Shown here: positions 1 to 33,175 of the stretch, piece after piece
Layout: each line of letters begins with the position of its first letter
Position numbering within the stretch: position 1 is the first letter of the stretch
Assembly: GCF_016903815.1 (NCBI RefSeq)
Contig: NZ_CP069973.1
DNA length: 64,000 nucleotides
Strand: one strand, 5' to 3'
Source: Escherichia coli
GTDB lineage: Bacteria; Pseudomonadota; Gammaproteobacteria; Enterobacterales; Enterobacteriaceae
The notes under the pieces: generated by a model
Seen by the model: the letters and a program-made list of their open reading frames with translations, nothing else
What the model was told of the DNA's origin: nothing
Databases searched by the model: none
Translations under genes and position numbers: made by a program

Positions 1-909
1 GGCGTTAATCAGCACGTTTCTCGCTTTCATGTATTCGCCTAACGCGGCAGCATTTTCTTCCCCGACGCGAACAAACAGCATATTGGTGTCCTGACGCATC
101 ACATCCGCGCCTGCTTCACGCAACTGCTCCGCCATCCAGGCGGCATTGTCATGATCTTCCTGCAAGCGTGCGACGTTATTTTTCAGGGCATACATCCCGG
201 CGGCTGCCAGAATGCCGGACTGGCGCATCCCGCCACCTGTCATTTTCCGCCAGCGAATTGCACGTTTAATGTAGTCACGGTTACCGACCAGTAACGAACC
301 GACTGGCGTACCAAGACCTTTCGACAGACAAATGGTGAACGAATCACAATATTGCGTGATCTCTTTTAGTTCGCAGCCATAAGCCACGATGGCATTAAAG
401 ATGCGCGCACCGTCAACATGCAGCGCCAGATTGCGCTCGCGAGTAAATTCCCATGCTTCTTTCAGGTATTCCCGCGGCAGCACTTTGCCGTTGTGGGTGT
501 TTTCCAGACTGAGTAATTTGGTGCGGGCGAAATGGATATCGTCGGGTTTGATTTTCATCGCCACTTTATCCAGCGGTAGCGTGCCGTCGGCAGCCGCGTC
601 GATGGGTTGCGGTTGAATACTGCCCAGCACCGCCGCGCCACCGGCTTCAAACAGATAGTTATGCGCGGCCTGACCGACAATATACTCTTCGCCGCGTTCA
701 CAGTGACTGAGCAGAGCGACCAGGTTGGCCTGAGTGCCGGTAGGCAGAAAAATGGCGGCTTCTTTACCGGAAAGCTCTGCTGCATAGTCCTGCAGAGCAT
801 TAACGGTAGGGTCGTCTCCGTAAACGTCGTCCCCAACCGGGGCGGCCATCATCGCTTCGAGCATGGCGCGGCTCGGTCGGGTAACGGTATCACTGCGTAA
901 ATCAATCAT
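1..909 (-). CDS. ltaE: low-specificity L-threonine aldolase, C-terminus cut by window start
   Basis: Reverse-strand translation from ATG at 909 reads MIDLRSDTVTRPSRAMLEAMMAAPVGDDVYGDDPTVNALQDYAA, which matches LtaE; no stop before position 1; lies downstream of poxB as in K-12. Confidence 0.85.
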   Translation of the reverse strand, partial: MIDLRSDTVTRPSRAMLEAMMAAPVGDDVYGDDPTVNALQDYAAELSGKEAAIFLPTGTQANLVALLSHCERGEEYIVGQAAHNYLFEAGGAAVLGSIQPQPIDAAADGTLPLDKVAMKIKPDDIHFARTKLLSLENTHNGKVLPREYLKEAWEFTRERNLALHVDGARIFNAIVAYGCELKEITQYCDSFTICLSKGLGTPVGSLLVGNRDYIKRAIRWRKMTGGGMRQSGILAAAGMYALKNNVARLQEDHDNAAWMAEQLREAGADVMRQDTNMLFVRVGEENAAALGEYMKARNVLINA

Positions 910-945
910 GGCATGTCCTTATTATGACGGGAAATGCCACCCTTT

Positions 946-2664
946 TTACCTTAGCCAGTTTGTTTTCGCCAGTTCGATCACTTCATCGCCGCGTCCGCTG
1001 ATGATTGCGCGCAGCATATACAGGCTGAAACCTTTGGCCTGTTCGAGTTTGATCTGCGGTGGAATGGCTAATTCTTCTTTGGCGACCACCACATCCACCA
1101 GCACCGGACCGTCGATGGAAAAGGCGCGTTGCAGGGCTTCATCGACTTCAGAGGCTTTTTCCACGCGAATACCCGTAATTCCGCACGCTTCGGCAATGCG
1201 GGCAAAGTTGGTGTCGTGCAGCTCAGTACCGTCTGTCAGGTAGCCTCCGGCTTTCATCTCCATCGCCACAAAGCCCAGCACGCTGTTATTAAAGACGATA
1301 ATTTTCACCGGCAGTTTCATCTGCACTACTGAGAGGAAATCGCCCATCAACATGCTAAAACCGCCATCGCCGCACATGGCGACCACCTGACGTTCCGGCT
1401 CGGTTGCCTGCGCACCCAACGCCTGCGGCATGGCGTTAGCCATCGAACCGTGGTTAAACGAACCTAACAGACGACGCTTGCCGTTCATTTTCAGATAACG
1501 TGCCGCCCACACCGTTGGCGTACCAACGTCACAGGTAAAGATGGCGTCATCGGCGGCAAAATGACTAATTTGCTGCGCCAGATATTGCGGGTGAATGGCT
1601 TTCTCGCTCGGTTTAGCTAAATCGTCCAGCCCTTTGCGGGCGTCGCGGTAATCTTCCAGCGCTTTATCCAGAAACTTGCGATCGGCTTTTTCTTCCACCA
1701 ATGGCAGCAATGCACGCAGAGTCGACTTGATATCGCCGACCAGTGCCATATCCACCTTGCTGTGAGCGCCGATGCTGGCTGGGTTGATATCAATCTGAAT
1801 GATTTTGGCATCGGTCGGGTAGAAGGCGCGGTAGGGGAACTGAGTACCGAGTAGCACTAACGTGTCGGCGTTCATCATGGTATGGAAACCTGACGAGAAG
1901 CCAATTAATCCCGTCATTCCGACATCATACGGATTATCGTATTCGACATGTTCTTTACCGCGCAGGGCATGAACAATAGGCGCTTTAATTTTCCCGGCAA
2001 ACTCAACTAACTCTTTATGCGCCCCCGCGCAGCCGCTGCCACACATCAGGGCGATATTGCTGGAATAACGCAGCAGTTGCGCCAGTTTGCGTAACTCTTC
2101 TTCTTCCGGCGTCACGACTGGCTGTGGCGCATGATACCAGTGCGAGGTTGCCCCTTCTGGCGCAGGTTTTAACGCCACGTCGCCCGGTAACACGACAACG
2201 GAAACGCCACGGTTAAGCACCGCTTTGCGCATGGCAATCGCCAGCACTTGTGGGATCTGCTCCGGGCTGGAAACCAGCTCGCAATAGTGACTACATTCGC
2301 GGAATAGCTCTTGTGGGTGGGTTTCCTGGAAATAGCCGCTGCCAATTTCGCTGGAGGGAATATGAGCGGCAATCGCCAGTACCGGAACGTGATTGCGGTG
2401 GCAATCAAACAGGCCGTTGATTAAGTGCAGGTTTCCGGGGCCGCACGATCCGGCACAGACCGCCAGTTCTCCTGAAAGTTGTGCTTCAGCGCCAGCGGCA
2501 AAGGCCGCCACTTCTTCATGGCGGGTGGACATCCACTCGATGGTGCCCATGCGATTAAGACTGTCACTAAGACCGTTCAGAGAGTCGCCCGTGACTCCCC
2601 AGATGCGTTTCACGCCTGCCGATTCGAGTGTTTTGGCGATATAAGCTGCAACCGTTTGTTTCAT
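946..2664 (-). CDS. poxB: pyruvate oxidase (ubiquinone-dependent, ThDP/FAD)
   Basis: 572-aa ORF, full-length match to PoxB as I recall it; ThDP-binding GDG motif region. Confidence 0.95.
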
Positions 2665-2796
2665 GGTTCTCCATCTCCTGAATGTGATAACGGTTACAAG
2701 TTTAGTTCATCTGACGGAGGGGGAAGGGATGGGAGAAAAAGGAGGCACTAACGGTTAAATAGCCCGATGAAAGGAATATCATCGGGCATAAGGCGA

Positions 2797-3765
2797 TTAT
2801 GCGAGAACCAAATCTCCCTGCGGATGGCAGGAGCAGGCCAGTACGTAACCTTCAGCGATTTCGGCGTCGGTCAGCGTCATTGTGCTGCTTACCGTATATT
2901 CACCGGAAACCACTTTTGTCTTACAGCAGCCGCAAACACCTGCACGGCAGGCGGCGACAACCGGAACGTTATTGCTTTCCAGCGCCTCCAGTAGCGTGGT
3001 GCCAACCGGGGCGTAAAATTCTCGTGCCGGTTGCAGTTTGGTGAATTTCAGACCGCTGGTCGCCGCTTCCGCTACTGGGGTGAAGAATTTCTCTTTAAAG
3101 AAACGCGTCACGCCGAGCGCTTTCACTTCCTGCTCTACCCAATCCATATACGGAGCCGGGCCGCAGGTCATCACGGTACGTGAAGCTAAGTCAGGAACGC
3201 GAGTCAGCAGTTCGCGAGTGAGACGACCAGCGATAAAGCCTTCGGTAACGTTATTTTCTGCCACCAGCGTCACCGGATAGTTGCGCCACTCATCGGCGAA
3301 AATAACATCCTGCGGCGAACGCACGTTGTAGATCACCTGCACATCGGCCTGCGGACGGTTCTTCGCCAGCCAGCGACGCATCGACATAATCGGCGTGACG
3401 CCGCAGCCTGCCGCCAGCAACAGGAATTTATCTTCTGCTTTATCGTCGCAGGTAAATTCCCCCATCGCGTCCGAAAGCCAGAGATAATCACCGCGTTTTA
3501 CATCGCGCGTCAGCCACTGGGAGCCGACACCGTCATCAATCCGCCGCACGGTCAGGGTGATATATTCACTCACGCCTGGCGTGGAGGAAATGGTGTAAGC
3601 ACGCAGCGTTTCCGCTGAGTTACGCACGCTGACCAGTGCATATTGCCCGGCGCGATATGGGTAGTAATCGTGGCAAATCAGGGAAATCGTCCACACATCC
3701 GGCGTTTCTTGCGTAATGTGATGAACCTGCATCCGCCATGGGCATTGATTCGTTGGCATCGTCAT
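2797..3765 (-). CDS. hcr: NADH oxidoreductase for hybrid-cluster protein (FAD/2Fe-2S)
   Basis: ORF with internal start MTMPTNQCPW; C-terminal ferredoxin-type Cys cluster (CRAGVCGCC); immediately downstream of hcp. Confidence 0.9.
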   Translation of the reverse strand: MTMPTNQCPWRMQVHHITQETPDVWTISLICHDYYPYRAGQYALVSVRNSAETLRAYTISSTPGVSEYITLTVRRIDDGVGSQWLTRDVKRGDYLWLSDAMGEFTCDDKAEDKFLLLAAGCGVTPIMSMRRWLAKNRPQADVQVIYNVRSPQDVIFADEWRNYPVTLVAENNVTEGFIAGRLTRELLTRVPDLASRTVMTCGPAPYMDWVEQEVKALGVTRFFKEKFFTPVAEAATSGLKFTKLQPAREFYAPVGTTLLEALESNNVPVVAACRAGVCGCCKTKVVSGEYTVSSTMTLTDAEIAEGYVLACSCHPQGDLVLA

Positions 3766-3776
3766 CGACAAACTCC

Positions 3777-5429
3777 TTACGCGCTCAACAGTTGCTTCAT
3801 GTCTTCTTCAACAGTGGTGATAGAACGCAGGCCGAATTTCTCGTTCAGCACCGCCAGCAGGTCTGGTGTCAGGAAACCAGGTGCAGTCGGGCCGGTTACG
3901 ATATTTTTTACACCCAGAGAAAGCAGTGTCAGCAGAATGACAATCGCTTTCTGTTCAAACCACGAGAGCACCAGCGACAGCGGCAGATCGTTGACACCGC
4001 AGCCCAGTTTTTCTGCCAGCGTTACCGCCAGAATAATCGCTGAGTAAGCATCGTTACATTGACCTGCATCTACCAGACGCGGCAGACCTTCGATATCGCC
4101 AAACTCGAGTTTGTTAAAGCGATATTTACCACAGGCGAGAGTCAGGATCAGACAGTCATCCGGCACGCTGGTGGCGAAATCGGTGAAGTAGTGACGCTCG
4201 CCGCGTGCGCCGTCACAGCCGCCAAGCAGGAAGATATGACGCAGTTTTTCACGGCTTACCAGATCAATCAGCGTATCCGCTGCGCCAAGCAGCGTTTGAC
4301 GACCAAAGCCCACGGTGATCAGGTGCGGAATTTCGCTGTACGGGAAGCCCGCCATTTGTTGCGCCTGGGCGATGACCGCAGAGAAATCTTCGCCATCCAG
4401 ATGACGCACACCCGGCCAGCCAACGATGCTGCGGGTCCAGATACGATCGTCATAAGCGCCTACGGTTGGGTCGATGATGCAGTTCGAGGTCATCACGATG
4501 GGGCCAGGGAAACGAGCGAACTCCACTTGCTGATTCTGCCAGCCGCTGCCGTAGTTACCGACCAGATGCTTGAATTTACGCAGCTCCGGGTAGCCATGCG
4601 CAGGCAGCATTTCGCCGTGGGTGTAGACATTAACGCCCGTGCCTTCGGTCTGTTCCAGCAGGTTGTAGAGATCTTTGAGATCGTGACCGGAAATCAGAAT
4701 GCATTTACCCGCCGTCGCTTTGACGTTGACCTGGGTTGGCGTCGGGTGACCGTATTTACTGGTTTCGCCTGCATCCAGAATGCTCATCACTTTGAAGTTC
4801 ATCTGGCCGATTTCCATTGAACACTCAAGAAGCGCGTTCATATCGGCAGGCCAGGTCCCCAGCCACGCCATGATTTTATGGTACTGGGCGTAAATATCAT
4901 TGTCGTATTGACCGAGAACGTGTGCGTGTTCCATATAGGCCGCCGCACCTTTCAGGCCATACAGGCACAGCAGGCGCAGGCCGAGAATGTTTTCGCCAAT
5001 CGCCGCTTTATCTTTGTTAGGGGTAAATTCTGCTGCCTGACGTTGCAGCTCGCCGAGATCATCGCTCACCAGTTGCAGGTCAGCCATCGGGTTATCGACG
5101 CGGGCGTTGGCATCTACAGCCAGGCATTGTGCTTTCAGCGCCTCGCGCAGGGCAATCGCTTCACGAGCGTAGCCGACTATACGCGGAGAATCGAAGTTAA
5201 CGTTGGTCAGGGTTGAGAAAAATGCGCGTGGCGCAAAGCTGTCTACATCGTGGTTGATGATGCCGTATTCACGCGCTTTTACCGCCCAGGCCGAAAGCCC
5301 TTGCAGCGCCGCGATGAGTAAATCCTGAAGGTCAGAGGTTTCCGCCGTTTTACCACACATCCCCTGCGCGTATGAGCAGCCGTTTCCTGCCGGAGTACGG
5401 ATAGTTTGTTCACATTGCACACAAAACAT
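3777..5429 (-). CDS. hcp: hybrid-cluster protein / hydroxylamine reductase
   Basis: 550-aa product starting MFCVQCEQT with N-terminal Cys cluster; synteny. Confidence 0.92.
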
Positions 5430-5572
5430 GATCACACCTTTTAAAGTTATATTTAATATACATGTTTAAGGTTAAGACGCTTAACGCAGGGATAAAAGGG
5501 ATTTTTCATGCAACTTTAAGGGAGATTGATTTAGCGCAATTTTGGCGGCAGGGATCTACCGCCAGAGAGGTA

Positions 5573-6472
5573 TTACGCAGAGAAAAAGGCGATGAGGATC
5601 GGCACTAACAGGCTAAGAATAAAACCGTGAACAATTGCCGCCGGGACCATATCCAGCCCGCCAGTACGTTGAAGAACGGGCAGGGTGAAATCCATTGATG
5701 TGGCACCGCATAAGCCCAGTGCAGTCGAGCGGCTGCGGCGAATCAGCCCAGGGATCAACATAATAGCAATCAGCTCACGGGCCAGATCATTAAAAAACGC
5801 CGCGCTCCCGATTACCGGACCAAAAGATTCGGTCAATAAAATACCGGAAAGAGAATACCAGCCGAAACCGGAGGCCATTGCCAGCGCGGTATTGATGGGA
5901 AGATCAAGAATAAAGGCGTTAATTAAACCACCAATTAATGAACTGGCAACCACCACCACGGCGACAATCATTCCCCGGCGATTAAGGACAATCTGCTTTA
6001 AGGTCATGCCATTATTGCGCAACTGAATACCGACGAGGAAAAGTAGTAGAATTAAGGTGTATTCACTGGCTTCGGTCGCGTGTTGTAAGAAAGCCAGTCC
6101 ACTCAGGCCAATGGCAAAACCAATCACTACTACGCCGCACAGTTTTAGCGACTCCAGCGCCATCGCAATACGCGACGGGAGTTTTTCTTGCTGGTGGTAG
6201 TTGCGCCACGGCAGACCGCGCTCCAGCCACATCAGGGCGGCAATATTACACAGTAAAATAACGGTAATACTGACAGCAGAATAATGCAGAATCGCCAACA
6301 GGTTACTGGCGAGGTTATCGAGAAACGCCAGACTGATACCCATAAAAAAGAGAATAAGGTAAACCATCCAACTTAATAGCTGATTAATAACTCTTAATGC
6401 AGCTTTTTGGCGAAGCGGAATGAGGTAACCCACAATCAGGGGAACCAGAATGATTAACAGCCCAGAAAACAT
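5573..6472 (-). CDS. lysO: lysine exporter LysO (YbjE), inner membrane protein
   Basis: Multi-TM ORF; start chosen at MFSGLLIILVPL to give ~299 aa; synteny next to aqpZ. Confidence 0.85.
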   Translation of the reverse strand: MFSGLLIILVPLIVGYLIPLRQKAALRVINQLLSWMVYLILFFMGISLAFLDNLASNLLAILHYSAVSITVILLCNIAALMWLERGLPWRNYHQQEKLPSRIAMALESLKLCGVVVIGFAIGLSGLAFLQHATEASEYTLILLLFLVGIQLRNNGMTLKQIVLNRRGMIVAVVVVASSLIGGLINAFILDLPINTALAMASGFGWYSLSGILLTESFGPVIGSAAFFNDLARELIAIMLIPGLIRRSRSTALGLCGATSMDFTLPVLQRTGGLDMVPAAIVHGFILSLLVPILIAFFSA

Positions 6473-6955
6473 GAAAACCCAGTCCTTGCAAAGATGAAGT
6501 CGAAATGCGCGATGACACACTACTGAAAGCGGAAGGACGAGTAAAGTTGCAATTAAAAGGAAATGTTATGCATAAGGATCGGTAGGGTATTCATTTTCAT
6601 TTAAAGATATTCTTGCGCTTTAATTACAAACCGCACCGGTGTTGGTGGCGTCAAAATCGCCGAGGCGTTCCCTGAAGGCCGGGGCAGCCCACATGGATGT
6701 GGGCTGAGGGCGCGTTTTACAGGGATGTTACCTCGCGCCCGACCCGGTAGCCGCAAGGGATAAGTCGAGGGCACCGCGCAGCGGCGATTTTGTTCGCCAG
6801 AGCCCGGGGGTGCAGGGGGCGGCGGCGATTGGCCGCCCCCTGCGCGCTCCCTGCGCCAGTGACTATATGTGGCTTAACACATCAAGGAGCGCAACAGGAA
6901 GATGAATCAATATATTTAAAAAAGGCCTGACATTGCGCCAGGCCTTCTGCGTTAA

Positions 6956-7651
6956 TTAATTACGTTTTTCCAGCAGGGGCCGGTAAATCAGACCACCGAT
7001 AATACCGCCGACAATTGGCACCACCCAGAAGAACCACAGTTGTTCTAACGCCCAGCCGCCCTGGAAGATAGCAACCGCGGTGCTGCGCGCCGGGTTAACA
7101 GAAGTGTTAGTCACCGGAATACTGATTAAGTGAATCAGGGTTAAGGCCAGACCAATAGCGATCGGCGCAAAACCAGCAGGAGCGAATTTGTCGGTTGCGC
7201 CGTGGATCACCAGCAGGAAACCTGCACTCAATACCAGTTCAACTACCAGCGCGGAAAGCATGGAATAACCGCCTGGCGAATGCTCGCCATAACCGTTAGA
7301 AGCAAAACCGCTGGCTGCCGCGTCAAAACCCGTTTTACCACTGGCAATTAAATACAGCAGCGCCGCCGCAACAATACCGCCGACAACCTGGGCAATTACG
7401 TAGCCAACGACTTCTTTTGCCGGGAAACATCCGCCAGCCCATAAACCAATAGTGACCGCCGGGTTAAAATGACCACCAGAAATATGACCAACAGCAAAGG
7501 CCATCGTCAGAACGGTCAGACCGAATGCCAGCGCCACGCCGGCAAAACCAATGCCTAATTCCGGGAAGCCTGCGGCCAGTACGGCACTACCACAGCCACC
7601 AAAAACAAGCCAGAAAGTACCAAAACATTCAGCTGCTAATTTTCTGAACAT
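6956..7651 (-). CDS. aqpZ: aquaporin Z
   Basis: 231-aa MIP-family protein with two NPA motifs ([15 protein letters not shown]); start [14 protein letters not shown]. Confidence 0.95.
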
Positions 7652-8076
7652 ATCCACCTCAATTAAAAATTGACCCTGTGAAAAATATGGTCGTTTTATA
7701 GGGTCGTCGTAAAAAAGTGACGACGGAAATAATGCGCGGCTATTTTAAAAACGAAGGCAAATCATTCGCCAGATAAATAAATCCAGTAAATTTGATTTAG
7801 GGCAACAGCGGGTTGCCCCATATAGTCATTTGTCTGATTGACAGTGTAGTGCAAGCGAAAGATTTAATCCTTTAGGCGTAATAAAAAATAATTTATCATG
7901 CTAATTATTTGATTTTGTTGTTTTTGCAGGCTTATCAGCAAGAGGGAGTATAACGCGATTATTCGCTCATTTTTCAGACATTTGCCATGCTTAAATGTGA
8001 TGTCATCACGTATTAGCAAGGCCTTTCCCGTTATACTGCCAGCGTAAAGGATAAGTCACATATTTCTGGAGGGGAT

Positions 8077-17207: not shown

Positions 17208-17486
17208 TGGGGTGGAGGAGGTTCAGACCCTTTTTTTGATGATGATGGTAAGTTGTTGATAATTAGTGCTGCGGGAAGGTAAGGATAAAAAAGGGTGCTG
17301 CAGGAGAATGGGATGGTTTTGCTTTATTAACAACGGGCTAAACGTGTAGTATTTGAGTTCATTGCCGTACAGGCAGCTTAGAAAGCCAACCGAAAGAAAA
17401 ACTCGATTTTTATACCGTTCACTGCCGTACAGGCAGATAAAATGCGAAAAAAAACTCGTACTTTCGTACGAGCTCTTCTTTGAATA

Positions 17487-18022
17487 TGGCGGTGAGGGGG
17501 GATTGACTCGCTTCGCTCGCCCTGCGGGCAGCCCACTCACTGTGTTCGTGGTCTGTCCAACTGGCTGCGCCAGTTGTCGAACCCCGGTCGGGGCTTCTCA
17601 TCCCCCCTGGAGTGCAATATGCGAAAAAAAAGCTCGCACTTTCGTACGAACTCTTCTTTGAATATGGCGGTGAGGGGGGGATTGACTCGCTTCGCTCGCC
17701 CTGCGGGCAGCCCACTCACTGTGTTCGTGGTCTGTCCAACTGGCTGCGCCAGTTGTCGAACCCCGGTCGGGGCTTCTCATCCCCCTTGGAGTGCAATATG
17801 CGAAAAAAAAGCTCGCACTTTCGTACGAGCTCTTCTTTGAATATGGCGGTGAGGGGGGGATTGACTCGCTTCGCTCGCCCTGCGGGCAGCCCACTCACTG
17901 TGTTCGTGGTCTGTCCAACTGGCTGCGCCAGTTGTCGAACCCCGGTCGGGGCTTCTCATCCCCCTTGGAGTGCAATATGCGAAAAAAAAGCTCGCACTTT
18001 CGTACGAGCTCTTCTTTGAATA
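17487..18022. repeat. tandem array of three ~179-bp direct repeats (17487-17664, 17665-17843, 17844-18022), each ending in a copy of the tRNA-Ser 3' end and containing a terminator-like hairpin plus T-run; a partial degenerate copy lies upstream at ~17340-17486
   Basis: Direct inspection: the motif tggcggtgaggggg recurs at 17487, 17665, 17844 and at the genuine tRNA 3' end (18023); the sequence between copies is near-identical. Confidence 0.85.
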
Positions 18023-18110
18023 TGGCGGTGAGGGGGGGATTCGAACCCCCGATACGTTGCCGTATACACACTTTCCAGGCGTGCTCCTTCAGCCACTCGG
18101 ACACCTCACC
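18023..18110 (-). tRNA. serW: tRNA-Ser (GGA anticodon), serW-type
   Basis: Reverse complement reads GGTGAGGTGTCCGAGTGGCTGAAGGAGCACGCCTGGAAAGTGTGTATACGGCAACGTATCGGGGGTTCGAATCCCCCCCTCACCGCCA; long variable arm; 3' CCA encoded. Confidence 0.92.
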
Positions 18111-29437: not shown

Positions 29438-29478
29438 ATCGTAGGCCGGATAAGGCTCGGTAGCGTCGCATCCGGCAC
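29438..29478. repeat. REP (repetitive extragenic palindromic) element downstream of ftsK
   Basis: gtaggccggataaggc...gcatccggca, matching the REP consensus in inverted orientation. Confidence 0.7.
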
Positions 29479-32937: not shown

Positions 32938-32957
32938 TACCCAATTTTTCTGAATCT

Positions 32958-32985
32958 AAAAAGCGCCTGCGGGCGCTTTTTTTGT
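32958..32985 (+). terminator. serS rho-independent terminator
   Basis: aaaaagcgcctgcgggcgctttttttg: GC hairpin followed by a T-run. Confidence 0.7.
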
Positions 32986-33175
32986 CTCCCTTTGATACCG
33001 AACAATAATTACTCCTCACTTACACGTAATACTACTTTCGAGTGAAAATCTACCTATCTCTTTGATTTTCAAATTATTCGATGTATACAAGCCTATATAG
33101 CGACCTGCTATAGAAATAATTACACAATACGGTTTGTTACTGGAATCAATCGTGAGCAAGCTTGAGTGAGCCATT

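Follow-up and report, generated by a model that had tools for sequence, protein, structure and literature searches.

A GC-rich block between aqpZ and lysO of Escherichia coli identified by sequence as the TRIP1a/RRS-lysO repeat: conserved fold, variable orientation and a likeness to the TwoAYGGAY motif

The aqpZ-lysO spacer and its repeat

Here, we examine the GC-rich block that lies between aqpZ and lysO in a 64,000-nucleotide stretch of the Escherichia coli contig NZ_CP069973.1 (the whole stretch is called the window, and all positions and strands are given relative to it). Judged by its sequence, the block is the already known E. coli repeat TRIP1a, since renamed RRS-lysO, in the K-12-like orientation. 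The surrounding genes are hcp (3777-5435, minus strand), lysO (5573-6473, minus), aqpZ (6956-7651, minus) and ybjD (from 8077, plus), and the order hcp-lysO-element-aqpZ-ybjD is the one found in the right replichore of K-12. The spacer between lysO and aqpZ measures 482 bp, and within it the GC fraction is 0.64-0.74 over 6650-6899 against 0.37-0.46 elsewhere (100-nt windows). These values bear out the original prediction, made from the letters of the window, of a GC-rich block flanked by aqpZ and lysO; the limits it gave (6650-6860) are too small, with similarity to other copies extending over about 6626-6905 and cross-genus conservation over about 6638-6895. The terminator of aqpZ, a hairpin (6922-6946) followed by a T-run on the minus strand, lies outside the repeat.

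The TRIP1 repeats (Rudd 1999) comprise five types at fixed loci; TRIP1a, a unit of about 266 bp with 62-65% GC, is the type that occupies the spacer of aqpZ and ybjE/lysO (Li et al. 2024, PMC10888264). The name RRS, for “replication risk sequence”, was given to two copies, RRS-lysO and RRS-dusC (Pham et al. 2023, PMC10287960; Pham et al. 2024, PMC11194060). The RRS of K-12 is 222 bp long and carries the diagnostic motif GGGGGTGCAGGGGGCGGCGG (PMC11194060); it lies about 650 kb from dif, and its partner, the second copy, stands close to dusC in the opposite replichore (Pham et al. 2023, 2024). In the window, alignment with the K-12 aqpZ-lysO and dusC-yohP copies places the repeat unit at 6626-6905, with the plus strand as the G-rich “sense” strand. 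The published RRS motif, which can form a G-quadruplex (G4), is matched exactly at 6806-6825 on the plus strand, once in the window and never in shuffled sequences. The expectation that the block would belong to a repeat family with unusual secondary structure was therefore right, that family member being TRIP1a/RRS-lysO.

By blastn, the spacer finds a match in 5425 of 5426 complete E. coli genomes, at a median of three places per genome (range 1-10), and it is 92.7-100% identical over 401 bp to E. coli aqpZ-lysO spacers. The identity is 100% with strain 7/2, which has 5-6 such places, and 92.7% over 401 bp including the flanks with BW25113, where the core is near-identical. A second E. coli copy lies between dusC and yohP. 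As to the replication context, the GC skew of the plus strand is positive in seven of the eight 8-kb segments of the window (cumulative value +0.31) although the local skew of 1-8000 is negative, and the plus strand is therefore taken as the leading-strand sequence, which is the template of the lagging strand.

Being GC-rich, palindromic, intergenic and repeated, the block had also been suggested to be a REP/BIME cluster, a reading that we reject. The REP consensus, allowing up to three mismatches, occurs in the window only at 29441-29476 (minus strand) and not within 6560-6960. The unit is about 280 bp long and present at a median of three places (maximum 10), compared with 35-40 bp and hundreds of copies for REP, and the element gave no Rfam or REP-type match in favour of such an origin. 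The two thus share their GC-rich, intergenic and palindromic character and have no sequence relationship, differing in size, copy number and architecture.

The fold of the G-rich strand

The palindromes were found where the original prediction had placed them, as two hairpins with fully complementary arms. The first, CAGCCCACAT/ATGTGGGCTG, has 10-nt arms at 6685-6694 and 6697-6706, forming hairpin 1 (6685-6706, plus strand), the loop of which (..CAUGGAUG.., with GGA at 6695-6697) is of the AYGGAY type. The second, GCAGGGGGCGGC/GCCGCCCCCTGC, has 12-nt arms at 6812-6823 and 6832-6843 and forms a GC hairpin of 12 perfect pairs with an 8-nt loop (6812-6843, plus), whose 5' arm overlaps the G4 motif. 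The partially repeated motifs that had been described alongside the palindromes are in fact the two arms of a long-range helix in which CAAAATCGCCGAGGCG (6652-6667) pairs with CGCAGCGGCGATTTTG (6777-6792) over 16 nt at 88%, and the small palindrome ggcgtcaaaatcgcc is a by-product of this helix. The 264 nt at 6635-6898 fold with -145.6 kcal/mol as plus-strand RNA (z = -5.4), -133.7 kcal/mol as minus-strand RNA (z = -5.6) and -81.7 kcal/mol as plus-strand DNA (z = -6.2), and none of 200 dinucleotide shuffles folded as well in any of the three tests.

These elements fit into a predicted 12-helix fold of the plus strand whose core, at 6638-6895, is conserved over nine enterobacterial genera in a profile of 70 copies. 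A 5' domain (about 6652-6792) resembles the Rfam motif TwoAYGGAY, discussed below; its closing helix P1 is the long-range helix just described, and it holds hairpin 1 and hairpin 2 (6708-6740, loop ..ACAGGGAUGU.., GGA at 6723-6725), the latter being placed by the TwoAYGGAY alignment and the family fold. A 3' domain (about 6809-6892) holds the GC hairpin as helix 11 and a terminal helix 12, in which GCGCUCC (6844-6850) pairs with the conserved and covarying strand GGAGCGC (6886-6892). An 18-nt direct repeat, GTTCCCTGAAGGCCGGGG (6667-6684) and GTTCGCCAGAGCCCGGGG (6792-6809), both on the plus strand and 125 nt apart from start to start, brackets exactly the 125 bp absent from the TRIP1b-type copies, which are known for a 125-bp internal deletion (PMC10888264).

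The comparison of the spacer across Enterobacteriaceae, which the original prediction had put forward as a check, found the element kept in nine genera with compensatory changes, a conservation well beyond simple repeat similarity and unlike the repeat-only conservation that the prediction had named as its refutation. Similarity searches returned copies in Klebsiella and Citrobacter, and a pattern scan of 100,044 species genomes returned 66 loci, with 1-7 copies per genome, from Escherichia, Citrobacter, Klebsiella, Raoultella, Enterobacter, Kluyvera, Pluralibacter, Pseudescherichia and Pseudocitrobacter. For covariation, 27 non-redundant copies from the nine genera, at most 93% identical to each other, were folded together with RNAalifold, giving 58 pairs in 12 helices; in 25 of the 58, both sides have changed with pairing kept. 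The paired cells amount to 97.4%, compared with 88.1% when columns are shuffled (0 of 500 shuffles reach the observed value) and at most 45% when the partners are slid, and the covariation score is 0.328, compared with 0.149 shuffled and at most 0.085 slid.

Support is spread along the fold. Helices 1-3, which make up P1, covary, and three pairs covary in the stem of hairpin 1 (CCCAC/GUGGG, CCCGC/GCGGG, CCAGC/GCUGG). The closing pair of hairpin 2 switches between A-U and G-C (14 and 13 sequences), both sides have changed in seven of the nine pairs of helix 11 across the family, and helix 12 covaries as GCGCUCC/GGAGCGC, CGUUCAC/GUGAACG and GCGCUCU/AGAGCGC. The loop and outer stem of hairpin 1, as well as the junction, were part of the retrieval pattern and their invariance is by construction; the loop of hairpin 2, CA-N-GGA-N-G, stands at a fixed spacing in 69 of 70 copies though it lies outside that pattern (CAGGGAYG in 54 of the 70, CAUGGAYG in four). 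Taken as a whole, the alignment shows that selection throughout the family maintains a specific fold of the G-rich strand.

The strand itself can be read from the wobble pairs. Cells with G·U outnumber those with A·C by 45 to 9 in the 27 copies and by 106 to 32 in a set of 64 copies, and therefore the G-rich strand is the one selected to fold. This fits the folding of a lagging-strand template, and an RNA read from the G-rich strand would fit just as well, since G·T wobbles are tolerated in folded single-stranded DNA (ssDNA) too and the signature cannot tell RNA from DNA. It also bears on the proposal that the element is a cis-regulatory part of a neighbouring transcript, either a 5' leader or riboswitch of lysO (as the original prediction had considered) or an element of the aqpZ 3' untranslated region. 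The element's place, with the aqpZ terminator on one side and the lysO start (6473) on the other, and the strong fold on both strands would suit this proposal, which we nevertheless regard as very unlikely and reject, because the element adjoins unrelated genes elsewhere (dusC-yohP, putP-efeU, alx-sstT and copA-ybaP) and, at the lysO locus, is inverted in 896 of 5426 genomes and internally deleted in others that keep the neighbouring genes. In addition, the strand with the wobble signature is antisense to both aqpZ and lysO, and the Rfam scans gave no match to a riboswitch family.

Two coding readings of the block were tried and rejected. A Shine-Dalgarno sequence (6884-6889) followed by an ATG (6901-6903) would open a tiny open reading frame (MNQYI* here, MMNQHITTS* in K-12); two findings led to its rejection, namely that GGAGCGC forms the 3' arm of a helix that covaries and that the ATG is not kept in other genera than Escherichia, cross-genus conservation ending after ..GCGCAAC, before the ATG. 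A small open reading frame on the opposite strand (GGAGG-N8-ATG in the Citrobacter flanks) has indels that are not multiples of three in all 26 aligned copies. The two open reading frames called mechanically inside the element have no Pfam match.

Some further observations concern the copies and their surroundings. An insertion of about 75 nt, carrying a third GGA hairpin (GCCCCAGGGAUGGGGC), is present in three copies (L013, at 3309-3401 of its locus; L048; L034) from Pseudescherichia, E. whittamii and an unclassified member of the Enterobacteriaceae, and it matches the Rfam family AaHKsRNA22 at 33 bits, compared with a threshold of 39.8 bits. Three copies (L016, L069, L020) come from metagenome-assembled genomes labelled Desulfacinum, Sporobacter termitidis and Proteobacteria; copy and flanks are Klebsiella- or E. 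coli-like and the contigs are short, so these are probably bin contamination rather than evidence for the element outside Enterobacteriaceae. In the window, short inverted repeats flank the element at 6589-6611 and 6898-6920 (TTTAAAGATATT/AATATATTTAAA and ATTCATTTTC/GAAGATGAAT), in an order that is not mirrored. Rfam matches at gathering level elsewhere in the window are a single CRISPR-DR4-like repeat (17357-17384, plus), an isolated match that is probably spurious, and an adjoining RtT element and tRNA gene (17487-17621 and 18026-18110, both minus). The window also holds the small RNA STnc130 (32951-33085, minus, 140 bits).

Replication gaps, orientation and the G-quadruplex

In light of the block being RRS-lysO, how would it act? 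The best explanation, in which we have strong confidence, is that RRS-lysO works as DNA, its G-rich strand folding and a gap arising in the lagging strand, and for the window element this published mode of action is the most likely one. As the replisome unwinds the region, the G-rich plus strand, as lagging-strand template, would briefly be single-stranded and would snap into a stable structure, composed of the multi-helix fold and of the segment 6806-6825 with its capacity to form a G4. The lagging-strand polymerase would stall at this structure and restart downstream, and a short-lived stretch of ssDNA, at most about 2 kb long and carrying SSB and RecA, would be left behind. The discoverers of RRS propose that this gap serves as a topological swivel, close to the border of the Ter macrodomain.

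In K-12, DNA polymerases I, II and IV are blocked on the G4 strand, lagging-strand gaps of up to 2 kb marked by RecA and SSB form at native and ectopic RRS, and the double RRS deletion was obtained only with a 200-kb region amplified (PMC11194060, PMC10287960). In single-molecule replication, a gap arises at nearly every encounter with an RRS (Kusi-Appauh et al. 2026, preprint, PMC13308219). The same preprint reports that the C-rich strand also triggers gaps, more weakly, and accounts in this way for orientation independence. By analogy with these results, we infer that the window copy would behave as the K-12 copy does.

Several observations weigh against this explanation, the first being that the functional experiments all come from K-12, a different strain from the one analysed here. 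Gap formation and polymerase block are properties demonstrated in K-12 only and would extend to the window by analogy. In K-12 itself, an inverted RRS gives no RecA/SSB peak and yet rescues viability (Pham et al. 2023, 2024). The orientation, which is said to be conserved, turns out to be polymorphic in E. coli: at lysO, 4026 of the 5426 complete genomes carry the forward allele and 896 (16.5%) an inverted full-length one, and at dusC, 3319 have the K-12-like allele and 2000 (about 37%) the inverted one. In O157:H7, both copies are inverted with respect to K-12 (L074 and L078 at lysO, L077 at dusC) and the immediate flanks differ. In Klebsiella pneumoniae ATCC 13883, the copies follow each other in the order minus, plus, plus, minus within 0.56 Mb of one scaffold, orientation being taken from the scaffold coordinates.

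The G4 part of the explanation is affected as well. The canonical G4 pattern (four runs of at least three G) is present in two of 70 copies and not in the E. coli RRS, and the regular expression for it was replaced by a G4Hunter-type score. This score is at least 1.5 in 39 of the 70 copies and below 1.2 in 29 of them, while the overlapping hairpin covaries. The low scorers are copies from Citrobacter, Pseudescherichia and Pluralibacter, together with E. coli-group copies that have a Citrobacter-like terminal helix (the GTGAACGGAAC end), and a Citrobacter sequence, GGGATTGTAAAGGGCGTGGCGGAGAACGCCCTTTACA, illustrates the hairpin without G-runs. From the low scores in 29 of 70 copies and the covarying hairpin, it follows that the G4 may not be the selected feature. 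Finally, a model asking merely for a stable structure leaves the invariant GGA loops unexplained.

The alleles at the E. coli locus are forward, inverted or internally deleted, and no empty aqpZ-lysO site was found among the sampled E. coli genomes. Some strains have internally deleted, inverted forms at aqpZ-lysO (L075, L004), and so does a 42-kb plasmid carrying ybjD-aqpZ-lysO-hcp. A different lysO allele (L076), from E. coli Ecol_448 and of a class that includes a sequence type 131 (ST131) genome, has a 79-bp deletion between CGCCGA and GCCCGA that removes both GGA hairpins and leaves the domain of the G-rich hairpin in place, which makes this allele a separation-of-function variant of natural origin. 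Orientation relative to replication was also sought in the GC skew of flanks of 1-14 kb, a measure that gave no information and was dropped, local skew being set by the direction of the genes.

The repeat takes a paired form in Enterobacter, Pseudescherichia, Kluyvera and Pseudocitrobacter, where two related, TwoAYGGAY-like copies stand head to head around an AT-rich spacer and make up a unit of about 600 bp (L025-L031 in Enterobacter sp. ENT03, L012-L015 in P. vulneris, L021 and L073). The two ends that face outwards are inverted, GTTCCGTTCAC ... GAGCGCAAC/GTGAACGGAAC, the second varying as G(T/A)GA(A/G)CG(G/C)AAC. Enterobacter sp. ENT03 has three such units within 28 kb. Given the head-to-head pairing, one G-rich strand therefore faces each way. 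The polymorphism and the pairs are compatible with the 2026 result on C-strand gaps, and these facts leave room for a function that is independent of orientation.

Could the repeat instead be the relic of a non-autonomous mobile or selfish element, similar to a miniature inverted-repeat transposable element, that spread through Enterobacteriaceae and affects replication only as a side effect? Copy number does vary, with 1-10 places per E. coli genome, 13 in one K. pneumoniae chromosome and seven in Enterobacter sp. ENT03, both orientations are found at the same locus with differing immediate flanks, the pairs of Enterobacter, Pseudescherichia and Kluyvera have inverted outer ends, and TwoAYGGAY is multi-copy in Psychromonas as well. 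Yet no target-site duplication or associated transposase was seen, the E. coli unit is without terminal inverted repeats, and each type sits at one fixed E. coli locus. A phage origin finds no match in 50,697 phage records. The five plasmid records that were examined have only ordinary housekeeping genes of chromosomal type around the element, and many of the plasmid records listed with it are of chromosomal size (0.3-5 Mb). Furthermore, the strong purifying and compensatory selection on fold and loops across genera points to a function at the level of the host or of the element and not to decay, and K-12 conditionally requires at least one copy. We consider such a relic, though plausible in view of the varying copy number and the two orientations at one site, unlikely, and RRS-lysO acting on the lagging strand stays the explanation that we prefer.

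The TwoAYGGAY likeness and comparison with known systems

An Rfam covariance-model scan, which the original prediction had proposed, found no family at threshold in the spacer. In a permissive scan, the plus strand at 6651-6790 matches TwoAYGGAY (RF01731) over model positions 1-168 with 29.8 bits (E = 0.017), the alignment taking in the closing stem and the two hairpins with loops ACAUGGAUGU and ACAGGGAUGU. The gathering score is 43 bits, and because the window copy falls under this curated threshold it is not filed as a member. Two Pluralibacter copies pass the threshold over their full length (L018 with 51.9 bits, L017 with 46.3 bits), as do the partner copies in Pseudocitrobacter and Kluyvera (L021 and L073, 49.2 bits), and the copies that pass align with the window element over its whole length at 55-85% identity, or 55-56% when counted over the entire element. 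Going by these alignments, the window copy is a homologue of TwoAYGGAY members. The first loop of the window copy, AUGGAU, fits AYGGAY; the second, AGGGAU, has a purine at position 2.

Large P1 stems are a known feature of TwoAYGGAY, Psychromonas carries it in several copies (Weinberg et al. 2010), and CsrA binding has been proposed for it (Gardner and Eldai). The literature on TwoAYGGAY, as far as our search retrieved it, makes no mention of TRIP1 or RRS, and the account of TRIP1 by Li et al. (2024, PMC10888264) is confined to E. coli and contains neither a covariation analysis nor a link to RRS or Rfam. The likeness lies in a long closing P1 stem (6652-6667/6777-6792) around two adjacent hairpins with loops A-Y/R-GGA-Y, and in a multi-copy presence in genomes. 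The enterobacterial elements differ by an extra 3' domain (the G-rich hairpin and the terminal helix) that is absent from the Rfam model, and the described TwoAYGGAY members are from Clostridia, gut metagenomes and Psychromonas and are assumed to be RNAs. The Rfam clan of the motif is, we presume, the Csr/Rsm one.

The element might then be, or also be, a structured-RNA gene of the TwoAYGGAY class read from the plus strand, with GGA loops that bind a CsrA dimer or another protein, in keeping with the small RNA that the original prediction had considered. A trans-acting RNA could account for the rescue of the K-12 double deletion by ectopic or inverted copies, a rescue that depends on neither orientation nor position. 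TwoAYGGAY is the top plus-strand Rfam match, over the full model and with homologues above threshold; the strong covariation and the G·U excess are on the plus strand; the CA-N-GGA-N-G loop is kept in nearly every copy; and CsrA binding has been proposed for the motif. The second loop, UUACAGGGAUGU (6717-6728), matches with one mismatch the consensus RUACARGGAUGU obtained for CsrA by systematic evolution of ligands by exponential enrichment (SELEX), and two GGA stand 28 nt apart.

Against these points, scans of both strands at 6400-7000 turned up neither a sigma-70-like promoter nor an intrinsic terminator, and neither was found upstream of the copies in Citrobacter, Klebsiella and Enterobacter, the last having a terminator-like hairpin just upstream of the copy. 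The RRS papers report no transcript, and our literature search found neither a transcript, nor evidence from crosslinking and immunoprecipitation, nor a paper linking CsrA to the aqpZ-lysO spacer. The wobbles have their counterpart in folded ssDNA, a single match to the consensus in 64 kb is within chance (0.62 expected), the 2026 preprint (PMC13308219) explains orientation independence by the weaker gap formation on the C-rich strand, and the ST131-type allele is without both GGA hairpins. We therefore think an RNA gene improbable, the part of the small-RNA idea that stands being the sub-threshold match and the covariation. A promoter noticed by eye in the Citrobacter left flank (TTGCTG-N17-AAAAAT) was not confirmed by a promoter scan.

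A related proposal is that what is conserved in RRS/TRIP1 is the multi-helix fold of the G-rich strand with its invariant GGA loops, an enterobacterial branch of TwoAYGGAY, and not the G4. We put this forward tentatively, as a possibility that we doubt more than we believe. If it holds, the TwoAYGGAY “RNAs” of Clostridia, gut metagenomes and Psychromonas might be replication-gap DNA elements, which would make RRS-like elements widespread across phyla. Alternatively, a transcript, or a protein that binds the loops (CsrA, for example), might mediate part of what RRS does, and the rescue by inverted and ectopic copies would then be easier to explain.

What do these findings add to an element that is already known, recently characterised and not a new class? 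New are the link to TwoAYGGAY, the comparative structure model and the orientation polymorphism, which we offer as leads of moderate interest. The link may reassign an orphan Rfam motif or widen the range of RRS-like elements to other phyla, and the structure model, with covariation helix by helix, could serve the RRS field. It could also matter to that field that conservation is seen in the GGA loops and in the hairpin overlapping the G4 motif, the G4 potential itself being specific to lineages. RRS is one of only two reported bacterial sequences that program ssDNA gaps in replication.

How does the window element compare with the known systems? Among RNAs, it resembles CsrB and CsrC in having GGA in hairpin loops, one of which matches the SELEX consensus with one mismatch; it differs in having four or five GGA on the plus strand, two of them in loops, and in the lack of any promoter or terminator found at 6400-7000. 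CsrB has about 22 GGA motifs and CsrC about 13. Among the TRIP1 repeats, it is of the TRIP1a type, at about 266-280 bp, with no difference in kind. Compared with RRS-lysO of K-12, it has the same locus, the same orientation to lysO and aqpZ, the exact G4 motif and a G-rich strand that would be the lagging-strand template, and it differs by a few substitutions in the core and by a 3' flank that is 11 bp shorter. The only other bacterial gap or nick programmed through a folded G-rich strand, according to the authors of the RRS papers, is that of the pilE-associated G4 of Neisseria gonorrhoeae. In the cited papers, the pilE G4 is a short sequence of 16 nt that serves recombination for antigenic variation, whereas the window element is a multi-helix repeat of about 260 nt.

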